Below, in pieces: positions 37,491 through 38,485 of a stretch of 64,000 bases of DNA (its first letter is position 1; every line of letters starts with the position of its first letter). Made by a program: the position numbers and the translations under genes. This stretch comes from an uncultured Planctomycetia bacterium. GTDB lineage: Bacteria > Omnitrophota > Gorgyraeia > 2-02-FULL-51-18. The stretch covers positions 2,717-66,716 of the forward strand of contig CAZXLF010000002.1 of the NCBI GenBank assembly GCA_964642015.1. The letters are read 5' to 3'. The notes under the pieces were generated by a model that did no database searches, had not been told where the DNA came from, and worked only from the letters and a program-made list of their open reading frames with translations.

Positions 37491-37564
37491 GCGCCCATAG
37501 CTCAGCCGGATAGAGCGACTGGCTTCGAACCAGTAGGCCGCAGGTTCGAGTCCTGCTGGGCGCA
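37491..37564 (+). tRNA. tRNA-Arg (UCG); CCA not encoded
   Basis: Acceptor gcgccca/tgggcgc, anticodon loop 'ctTCGaa', T-arm gcaggttcgagtcctgc. Confidence 0.75.
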
Positions 37565-37770
37565 TATTTTTTTGTAGGAATTGGCACAGGACTCGAAGAG
37601 AGTGCCAAGTTTATGAACTGCGACGGCTAGGAGCAGTGCCCGCCGCAGAGCGTAGGCGGGTCCGCCAATCAGTTTGGCGGAAATGCGGCGAGTGGCCGAC
37701 CTGAAGCGAACGTAAGTGAGCGGAAGGCGCCGAGTCCTGCTGGGCGCATATTTTTTCGATATAAATCCAG
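37565..37770 (+). repeat. tRNA-trailing element E1. It opens with an inverted copy of the tRNA-Arg T-arm, has a conserved ~100-bp core, and ends with a direct duplicate of the tRNA-Arg 3' end plus T-run.
   Basis: 'caggactcgaagagagtgccaag...gcgagtggccgacctgaagcgaacgtaagtgagcggaaggcgccgagtcctgctgggcgcatatttttt'. The last ~25 nt equal the tRNA 3' end at 37540..37572. Confidence 0.7.
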
Positions 37771-37911
37771 AAATTCATAGATAAAACTAAATAACACTAG
37801 GCATTTCCGATATTTAAGCAGCTTAATTTAAGTTTGTCATAATGACGGTTTTTAGCTAGAATAGCACGTTCATGTAAAGCGGTATTTTTGGATGAGTGCG
37901 GGTCGATTTTT

Positions 37912-37984
37912 GCGCCGCTAGCTCAGTTGGTAGAGCAGCTGACTCTTAATCAGCGGGTCGCAGGTTCGATCCCTGCGCGGCGCA
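37912..37984 (+). tRNA. tRNA-Lys (CUU); CCA not encoded
   Basis: Acceptor gcgccgc/gcggcgc, anticodon loop 'ctCTTaa', T-arm gcaggttcgatccctgc. Confidence 0.75.
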
Positions 37985-38122
37985 CGGTTTTTTGGAATAG
38001 CAATAGGGATCGAAGTGAGCCGCACGTTTTTGAGTTGCGATGGTAGGAGCAACGAATGCGGCAAGTGGTCGACCCGAAGCGAAAGCAGAGGGCTCCGATC
38101 CCTGCGCGGCACATAGTTTTTT
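37985..38122 (+). repeat. tRNA-trailing element E2, same family. It starts with an inverted tRNA-Lys T-arm and ends with a diverged duplicate of the tRNA-Lys 3' end.
   Basis: 'agggatcgaagtgagccgcacgtttttgagttgcgatggtaggagcaacgaatgcggcaagtggtcgacccgaagcgaaagcagagggctccgatccctgcgcggcacatagtttttt'. Confidence 0.7.
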
Positions 38123-38140
38123 ATATATGTAAATTTTTCC

Positions 38141-38222
38141 GGGCGGATGGCGAAACTGGCAGACGCGTCAGCCTTAGGAGCTGATGGGGCAACCCTTGGA
38201 GGTTCGAGTCCTCTTCCGCCCA
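38141..38222 (+). tRNA. tRNA-Leu (UAG) with a long variable arm; CCA not encoded
   Basis: Acceptor gggcgga/tccgccc, anticodon loop 'ctTAGga', long variable arm 'tggggcaacccttgg', T-arm ggaggttcgagtcctct. Confidence 0.65.
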
Positions 38223-38269
38223 AGATTTAATGGGTGAGAAAGAGTTAAGGCGACTCTAAAAGATTTCGC

Positions 38270-38344
38270 GCGGGAGTAACTCAGTGGTAGAGTGCAACCT
38301 TGCCAAGGTTGAGGTCGAGGGTTCGAATCCCTTCTCCCGCTCCA
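38270..38344 (+). tRNA. tRNA-Gly (GCC) with encoded CCA
   Basis: Acceptor gcgggag/ctcccgc, anticodon loop 'ttGCCaa', T-arm gagggttcgaatccctt, 3' tCCA. Confidence 0.75.
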
Positions 38345-38485
38345 TTTTATGATAAAAGCGGTTTAGGATTCGAAGTGAGCCGCAGTTTATGAGCTGCGAC
38401 GGGTAGAAGCAGCGAGTGCGGCGAGTGGCCGACCCGTAGCGAGCGTAAGCGAGCGAAGGGCGCCGAATCCCTTCTCTCGCTCCAT
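38345..38485 (+). repeat. tRNA-trailing element E3, same family. It starts with an inverted tRNA-Gly T-arm and ends with a diverged duplicate of the tRNA-Gly 3' end, including CCA.
   Basis: 'aggattcgaagtgagccgcagtttatgagctgcgacgggtagaagcagcgagtgcggcgagtggccgacccgtagcgagcgtaagcgagcgaagggcgccgaatcccttctctcgctcca'. Confidence 0.7.

Follow-up and report, generated by a model that had tools for sequence, protein, structure and literature searches.

This report concerns a short repeat that trails tRNA genes in a 64,000-nt stretch of DNA from an uncultured bacterium (GenBank assembly GCA_964642015.1, contig CAZXLF010000002.1), referred to here as the window. Three intact copies of 110–162 nt were found in it, downstream of tRNA-Arg(TCG), tRNA-Lys and tRNA-Gly. 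We read them as members of a family of small, non-coding, non-autonomous insertion elements in the 3' trailers of tRNA genes, which would lie on the tRNA strand, act as a folded single strand and carry arms templated from the target. We put the probability of this reading at about 50%.

All copies have the same order of parts: the tRNA gene, a spacer (20–22 nt in the window), a left arm, a core and a right arm. Alignment of the three window trailers with MAFFT gave a common core of ~95 nt. A 17-mer from the core, allowing up to 3 mismatches, matched 4 times in the window, at the three copies and one other site. The expected number is ~0.10, and none of 100 shuffles reached 4. With a covariance model built from ten copies, the window copies scored 106–115 bits (E about 1e-25 to 1e-28). 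A preliminary description of this DNA, made from the sequence alone, had reported a core shared by the Arg, Lys and Gly trailers, and these three results bear it out. Indels among the copies are not multiples of three and the element is non-coding. In every copy the ends read ...YGAA and C-R57..., and beyond the host-derived arms the only shared ends are GAAG...C at the ends of the core.

In sequence, the left arm is the T-loop of the host plus the 3' strand of its T-stem (positions 54–64), reverse-complemented. Across copies the left arms are exact reverse complements of 8–17 nt, and all of them end in ...YGAA. The left arm in L112 (relatives are cited by locus number, with positions after a colon) is a perfect 17-mer that extends into the acceptor strand. 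Decayed remnants of longer left arms are present in the Gly, L133 and His copies; in the window, AGCGG immediately 5' of the Gly left arm looks like what is left of a longer arm that once extended as far as the acceptor strand. The inverted copy of its own T-arm with which each copy had been said to begin is indeed host-specific and exact, but it begins ~20 nt after the tRNA and comprises only the T-loop and the 3' stem strand.

The right arm repeats the host tRNA directly, from C56 in the T-loop to the 3' end, and adds 0–16 nt of trailer. The duplicate begins at C56 in every copy whereas its right edge is variable, and the repeat length ranges from 18 to ~37 nt. As had been claimed, each window copy ends in a duplicate of the 3' end of its own tRNA, including the T-tract or CCA (identities in Table 1). 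We compared 52 tRNA gene calls from the window and related loci, two of which hold identical sequence. Direct repeats of at least 13 nt were confined to element-bearing tRNAs, and nearby inverted repeats of at least 9 nt were almost confined to them.

Orthologues of tRNA-Leu(TAG) have the T-loops TTCGAGT, TTCAAAT and TTCGACT, and the arms of their elements differ to match. Because the arms track the T-loop differences between orthologues, the customisation to the host is real. No CCA is encoded by the tRNA-Arg and tRNA-Lys genes, and what their duplicates contain instead is the T-run of the genome. This makes DNA or the primary transcript the template; mature tRNA is ruled out, since the duplicates have the genomic trailer rather than a post-transcriptionally added CCA.

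The window contains six tRNA genes (ARAGORN and Rfam), four of which (Arg-TCG, Lys-CTT, Leu-TAG and Gly-GCC) form a cluster at 37491-38344. The gene directly downstream of the cluster encodes a phosphotransferase system EIIA (PtsN-like) protein, whose homologues at 83–96% identity are named Candidatus Omnitrophica or Omnitrophota. We took the syntenic tRNA cluster from a dozen relatives, and pattern scans added L112 (an Omnitrophota metagenome-assembled genome), L120/L123 and L121. Scanning genome contigs with the 18-mer TGCGGCRAGTGGYCGACC returned 119 loci, nearly all of them chance matches in GC-rich genomes, and only L112 was real. A gapped-pattern scan of metagenomes gave 3 true loci, and two scans of viral contigs gave nothing or chance matches only. 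Both large collection scans used patterns that reach only close relatives, and the census is small and drawn from a single clade.

At E ≤1e-8 the covariance model found 14 distinct copies in ten DNA sources, the window and nine loci, all from Candidatus Omnitrophota assemblies. The family has so far been seen only in this group. Every model match in the ~330 kb searched lay directly 3' of a tRNA, on the same strand. Copies range from ~110 to 165 nt and follow nine different host tRNAs, including a minimal copy at another Gly locus. The hosts are Arg-TCG (window), Arg-CCG (L135), Lys (window, L135, L138/L139 and L142), Gly (window and L140, with a core-less minimal form in L137), His (L136, with a relic in the window), Leu-TAG (L121, L133 and L142, with relics in L129 and the window), Leu-CAG (L112) and Leu-TAA (L120). 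The Arg-CCG copy in L135 has a perfect duplicate of 21 nt and a perfect left arm of 11 nt. The copies in related genomes have target-specific arms too. One core behind nine different tRNAs is at odds with a single-attP integrative element, in agreement with the preliminary description.

Four helices, P1 (arm to arm), P2, P4a and P4b, were scored on an unfitted MAFFT alignment of ten copies. Standard pairs occupied 95.7% of cells, compared with 36–45% when the partners were slid by 1–3 columns. Both sides had changed in 13 of the 23 pairs, and none of 500 shuffles matched the observed covariation. The fold and the covariation also held on 14 copies. P2 illustrates the variation, with the pairings GCCGCA/TGCGGC, CGCCGC/GCGGCG, CACGCC/GGCGTG, CGCGCC/GGCGCG, GGCGCC/GGCGCC and GCGCC/GGCGC. 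RNAalifold independently recovered P1, P2 and an extended P4. It also predicted that the conserved G115 pairs with C56, and therefore the host-specific part of both arms starts at position 57.

The paired arms (P1) close a conserved three-way junction, and the P2 helix carries a variable domain. Two core types were distinguished. In type A, P3 is one hairpin, whose loop measures 11 nt; in type B its place is taken by two GC hairpins. Both types conserve the junction strands GAAGNGA and GAGU and two symmetric G.A-rich internal loops in P4. Additional hairpins occur at P3, at P5 and once in a junction strand (Arg copy, L135 and L142); tolerance of extra hairpins is typical of structured RNAs. 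Two other structural assignments were rejected. A pseudo-T-arm at the 3' end of the core gave way to the P4 pairing, which the covariation supports instead, and the sequence patterns do not fit the cores of a K-turn, group II domain 5 or a hammerhead.

Because the fold is kept through compensatory changes, we conclude that the element acts as a folded single strand. On the opposite strand the G.A loops of P4 would be pyrimidine mismatches, and this suggests that the active strand is that of the tRNA. Weak strand evidence came from the 6 G.U cells against 3 A.C cells, and the folding energies of single sequences gave no distinction between the strands. Most likely, what acts is RNA produced by read-through from the promoter of the tRNA. 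When the tRNA and its element were folded together, the predicted minimum-energy structure paired the left arm with the 3' part of the tRNA itself in five of six cases, and in the same five the distal duplicate completed the acceptor and T stems, although such predictions cannot be relied on for tRNA sequences without modifications. The alternative structure may still be relevant to processing.

Loci with and without the element were compared among the relatives, as the preliminary description had suggested. L129, whose PtsN is 92% identical, keeps the gene order of the window, and its Arg, Lys and Gly sites are empty with plain trailers. L131/L132 have a compact tRNA cluster with zero copies. 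Comparison of filled and empty sites showed a gain of the spacer, the left arm, the core and a second tRNA copy from C56 to just past the 3' end. The alignments are compatible with either repeat copy as the original.

Relics or deletion forms were found after tRNA-His and tRNA-Leu in the window, after tRNA-Leu in L129 and after tRNA-Gly in L137 and L138. The Leu-TAG copy is intact in L142, survives as a left-arm relic in L129 and is a further decayed relic in the window; the copy is therefore old and was lost by internal deletion. The earlier statement that no element follows tRNA-Leu is accordingly right as to an intact copy and missed the decayed left arm. Likewise, the supposed truncated start after tRNA-His is related sequence, but it is the decayed orthologue of a full copy at L136:6730-6859.

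The cores group by genome or by type and not by tRNA. When the arm columns were excluded, the three window copies clustered together and with L120. tRNA-Lys carries type A in the window and L142 and type B in L135 and L138, and L142 contains both types. Contigs of the same strain that were assembled from short reads and encode the PtsN protein of the window stop inside the tRNA-Gly and element region or next to it, and so added no upstream context.

In the mechanism that we favour, the core would be the unit that spreads between tRNA genes. The arms would not be carried along with it and would instead be templated from the new target, or from its primary transcript, at copying; copies with perfect duplicates already have perfect left arms, which is why we place the writing of the arms at this step. 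The element would then be expressed as the trailer of its tRNA, and copies would afterwards be lost by internal deletion. We place the element among the insertion elements that target tRNA genes. Whether it makes a new class of them is a more doubtful matter, and we raise it as a tentative possibility. Such an element would land with its core at T-loop position 56/57 of any tRNA gene, and template switching on the tRNA gene or the primary transcript would write the inverted and the direct copies. The tRNA would survive, a closing helix would be gained, and the RNA could bring about a refolding of the precursor in which the tRNA is completed by the distal duplicate. We know of no described transposon class with target-templated arms.

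Several models of copying were set aside. If simple fold-back priming started from a staggered cut, spacer and duplicated trailer would be of equal length. Only L112 shows this, and the model fails elsewhere because the spacer usually exceeds the duplicated trailer. Under integrase, IS200/IS605, homing and retro-insertion models alike, a change of target is predicted to give a chimeric, non-functional tRNA. A role like that of a primer-binding site on the minus strand was rejected, as the CCA end would not pair. One proposal of the preliminary description was a miniature mobile element copying or priming from the 3' end of the tRNA. The repeat family, the target-specific arms, the presence or absence of copies and the relics agree with this proposal, but none of the routes it named (fold-back, template switching or an intermediate like that of a short interspersed nuclear element) was demonstrated.

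We searched for enzymes that could move the element. Open reading frames (ORFs) of at least 150 aa, scanned over most of the window, included no transposase, reverse transcriptase or integrase. Among the neighbours of the fetched loci an integrase was found only in L136, upstream of tRNA-His. The gene tables of the fetched loci and the window ORFs showed no reverse transcriptase next to any copy, and no tnpA or tnpB Pfam domain was found in the window or in any fetched locus, the search covering loci and not whole genomes. In the window only tRNA passed the gathering score in Rfam (release 15). With E raised to 10, nothing credible overlapped the element over 37400-38560 and L135:3380-6400, and the Rfam models IS605-orfB and HEARO gave no match. 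A literature search found no description of a tRNA-trailing element, and the earlier view that this element type is undescribed is upheld.

Other inserts at or near tRNA genes were also seen in the relatives. In L144:9338-9960 (GCA_016180585.1) there are three copies of tRNA-Gly(GCC), one of which is intact. The second, of full length, has its T-loop split at C56|G57 by a hairpin insert of 62 nt. The third is represented by its 5' part, which is interrupted at C56|G57 by a 39-nt version of the insert and followed by an 84-aa GIY-YIG gene. In L142:8683-8755, tRNA-Arg(TCG) is followed 47 nt on by a divergent tRNA-Arg 3' fragment, GTGGGTTCAAATCCCTCCGGGCGCA, which looks displaced by integration. 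A tRNA-Pro at L137:419-480 has a different small insert of the same logic: first the 3' strand of the acceptor in inverted form (GCGAGAG), next a GC hairpin, and last the end of the tRNA and its trailer, directly repeated (TCGCCCCGATGTTTT). At L136:1701-6605 an island-like block (Fic, Replic_Relax, HTH_17 and a tyrosine integrase) ends 7 nt before the tRNA-His that carries a full copy of the element; no tRNA-His repeat was found upstream within the locus. The element itself marks position 56/57 of the T-loop as a recurrent point of insertion in these genomes.

A number of observations weigh against a mobile element. Some old, vertically inherited copies stay intact, and Leu-TAG is common to the lineages of the window, L129 and L142. 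The Lys copies of L135 and L138 carry compensatory changes in P2 and P5, and the His duplicate in L136 is identical over 20/20 nt although the spacer has diverged. Intact old copies fit selection at the locus as well as they fit mobility, and the similarity of cores within a genome could reflect gene conversion instead of spread. From simple known mechanisms we could not build one that yields an inverted and a direct copy of the target and leaves the tRNA intact. The T-run right after several host tRNAs might stop read-through. No autonomous copy, transposition event or enzyme was seen in the data examined.

The intact state of old orthologous copies and the identity of their right arms make a trailer RNA a serious rival. 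The element would then be a host-selected, cis-acting RNA that is not currently mobile, whose arms co-evolve with the tRNA and which would affect 3' maturation, termination or folding; gene conversion would keep the cores alike, and differences between genomes would be losses. Besides the persistence of the Lys and Leu-TAG orthologues described above, old right arms not only stay identical to the tRNA but track a change in the acceptor stem (CTGCTCG in L135, CTGCGCG in L138), and the five predicted folds in which the left arm pairs with the tRNA and the distal duplicate completes its stems point the same way. The conserved fold with its compensatory changes is in keeping with the structured trailer RNA that the preliminary description had offered as its other possibility. 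However, nine host tRNAs would require at least nine gains with new arms in one phylum. Between close relatives (92–94% PtsN identity), almost every tRNA site and also the core subtype differ, the Leu copy is lost in two of three lineages and L131 lives without any, so that the element is dispensable, and the three window copies cluster together regardless of tRNA. We consider this explanation unlikely on balance; it could hold together with the reading as a mobile element. It appears quite improbable that the element is an intron-like insertion with a spare 3' exon, placed in the T-loop at 56/57. Such an insertion would be tolerated because its 5' part supplied a replacement 3' end for the tRNA, and the left arm would fold back on the replacement. 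The junction of the right arm lies at 56/57 in every copy, the tRNA-Gly of L144 carries an unrelated insert at the same position with a second interrupted copy beside the GIY-YIG gene, and the predicted folds favour pairing of the left arm with the proximal tRNA. The match of both the left arm and the replacement 3' end to each new tRNA is left unexplained by this account. Moreover, the covariance model does not match either form of the L144 insert, GIY-YIG is absent from the window and 13 other loci scanned (L144 apart), and the alignments of empty and filled sites cannot tell which copy of the repeat is the original.

It is highly improbable in our estimate that the copies are scars left by integrase-driven elements with a target in the tRNA T-loop, or miniature forms derived from them, such as att remnants or forms like cis-mobilizable elements (CIMEs). 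The repeat does resemble integrase att sites, since its edge in the T-loop is fixed and the one past the tRNA varies, a combination that Williams, in 2002, is said to have described as the classic integrase att signature. The displaced tRNA-Arg fragment in L142 and the integrase that adjoins tRNA-His in L136 can also be counted in its favour. Yet a single core of ~100 nt with identical boundaries is found at nine tRNAs, each with its own arms, 13 of the 14 copies have no integrase nearby, viral contigs gave no matches, and a conserved, covarying fold is not expected of scars. We give the least credence of all to a non-autonomous element of the IS200/IS605 type or a guide resembling omega RNA, in which the core would be the scaffold and the right arm a 3' guide derived from the flank. 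The omega RNA of TnpB has a conserved scaffold followed by a flank-derived guide, and the layout here resembles this (100–150 nt of scaffold, then at least 18 nt derived from the flank); hairpins conserved in structure would also suit a single-strand transposase. Against this, neither tnpA nor tnpB and neither Rfam model was matched in the searches above, and such elements make no target duplication and have no target-specific left end, whereas a direct repeat is present here. We therefore retain the target-templated insertion element as the preferred reading.

If the arms are templated from the target, a selfish element could colonise essential single-copy tRNA genes harmlessly. The element would also be an undescribed structured RNA, with a three-way junction and conserved G.A-rich loops, in a poorly known uncultured phylum. 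For practical work, the repeat falls where short-read contigs end, next to the tRNA cluster, and the annotation of tRNAs can be misled by its partial tRNA copies.

Table 1. Positions of the tRNA genes and of the parts of the element in the window.
Feature	Position	Strand	Remarks
tRNA-His	22999-23076	+	ARAGORN, Rfam
Decayed His copy	23127-23200	+	left-arm-like AGGATTTGAA, GAGAG, degenerate type B core, no right arm
tRNA-Arg(TCG), host	37491-37564	+	ARAGORN, Rfam
Proximal direct-repeat copy of Arg element	37547-37572	+	tRNA C56-A73 plus TATTTTTT
Spacer, tRNA-Arg to left arm	37565-37586	+	22 nt; opens with T-run belonging to the direct repeat
Arg left arm	37587-37597	+	CAGGACTCGAA, 11 nt; exact reverse complement of tRNA positions 54-64
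Arg core	37598-37730	+	junction strand GAGAG, P2 partly disrupted, P3 hairpin, P4 helix
Additional insert in Arg core	37639-37681	+	43 nt, two GC hairpins
Arg right arm	37731-37756	+	direct duplicate from C56 to 3' end plus TATTTTTT, 26/26 nt
tRNA-Lys(CTT), host	37912-37985	+	proximal repeat copy 37967-37993
Lys left arm	38005-38014	+	AGGGATCGAA, 10 nt, exact reverse complement
Lys core	38015-38095	+	shortest form, without P5 hairpin
Lys right arm	38096-38122	+	duplicate from C56 to 3' end plus T-run, 24/27 nt identical
tRNA-Leu(TAG)	38141-38222	+	ARAGORN, Rfam
Decayed left-arm relic after tRNA-Leu(TAG)	approx. 38237-38253	+	GAGAAAGAGTTAAGG; aligns with L129 relic and intact L142 copy
tRNA-Gly(GCC), host	38270-38344	+	proximal repeat copy 38324-38345
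Gly left arm	within 38365-38374	+	GGATTCGAA / AGGATTCGAA, 9 nt exact
Gly core	38375-38463	+	
Gly right arm	38464-38485	+	duplicate from C56 to CCA plus T, 21/22 nt identical

A sigma-70-like promoter match, TTGTCA-17-TAGAAT, lies at 37834-37862 in the window, 50 nt upstream of tRNA-Lys, in a region conserved in L129. Because of this promoter-like site, tRNA-Arg plus its element may form a separate transcription unit.

Other repeats were noted around the tRNA genes. A second hairpin repeat, CCGCCAC-NNN-AGCGTYGGCGG, occurs near tRNA genes at 22936-22965 in the window, in L120, at L136:9570-9600 and at L144:9180-9210, and the window has a palindrome, GCCTGCCTGCCGGCAGGCAGGC, at about 22915-22936. 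Palindromic repeats that resemble MITEs (transposable elements of the miniature inverted-repeat type) lie between tRNA genes at L120:3180-3560 and 3900-3960, L137:9773-9905, L138:5205-5560, L140:100-200 and L142:9620-9720. Examples are CCCCTCC...GGAGGGG hairpins and CTTCTTCGCCCTCC...GGAGGGCTTCGAAG units, and some of them separate a tRNA from its element. Just upstream of the intact tRNA-Arg(CCG) of L129, the initial 12 nt of that gene are duplicated (GTGCCCATAGCT), and an unrelated stretch rich in hairpins comes next (L129:9146-9250). Immediately downstream of the tRNA-Leu(TAA) element, L120:3545-3895 (minus strand) holds a small ORF whose translation, judged by eye, looks like a DUF559/Vsr-like endonuclease. 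Elsewhere in the window (4421-5572, 10261-11358, 59317-60285, 7961-9028 and 52676-56843), three paralogous nucleotidyltransferases of the uncharacterised family PF14907, an HPr-kinase-C-like protein and three radical SAM proteins are encoded among glycosyltransferase genes.

Integrative elements that target the T-loop, namely tyrosine-integrase islands and CIME-like forms, share with the present family the location at the 3' end of a tRNA gene, the direct repeat from the T-loop to past the tRNA end and an intact tRNA. The elements described here differ in being only 110–165 nt long, in having no genes and usually no integrase nearby, and in using one core across nine tRNAs instead of one attB per lineage. 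They also have an additional inverted copy of the target and a covarying three-way-junction fold.

MITEs, REP/BIME, Correia and RPE sequences are likewise short, non-coding, multi-copy, non-autonomous and without a transposase of their own. Such small repeats also show presence/absence polymorphism, leave relics and break short-read assemblies. In contrast to MITEs, the terminal inverted repeats here are host tRNA sequence and differ from copy to copy, with none that is family-wide. The duplication is 18 to ~37 nt with one fixed and one variable edge and is not of fixed length, and both position and orientation next to tRNAs are strict.

The likeness to introns with guide pairing (the internal guide sequence of group I, the exon-binding sites of group II and archaeal tRNA introns) is one of concept only, in that a 5' segment complements the adjacent host gene; the junction at 56/57 in the T-loop also recalls archaeal tRNA introns at non-canonical positions. 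Group I introns are ~200 nt or more and group II introns ~600 nt or more, whereas the present elements are 110–165 nt, do not have their cores and gave no Rfam intron match. In addition, the upstream tRNA is already complete and needs no splicing, and the host is bacterial. Unlike a retron non-coding RNA, the element had no adjacent reverse transcriptase next to any copy.

Folded recombination sites, the integron attC and the attP hairpin of CTX phage, are similar in concept, with structure conserved over sequence, and in that the arm-to-arm stem recreates the duplex of the target site as a hairpin. The R-box of attC (GTTRRRY; RYYYAAC...GTTRRRY) is not present at the ends of the elements, and we know of no link of IntI or Xer to a tRNA-trailing element. 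Compared with such sites, the purine-rich junctions and G.A loops of the present family look like RNA tertiary motifs.

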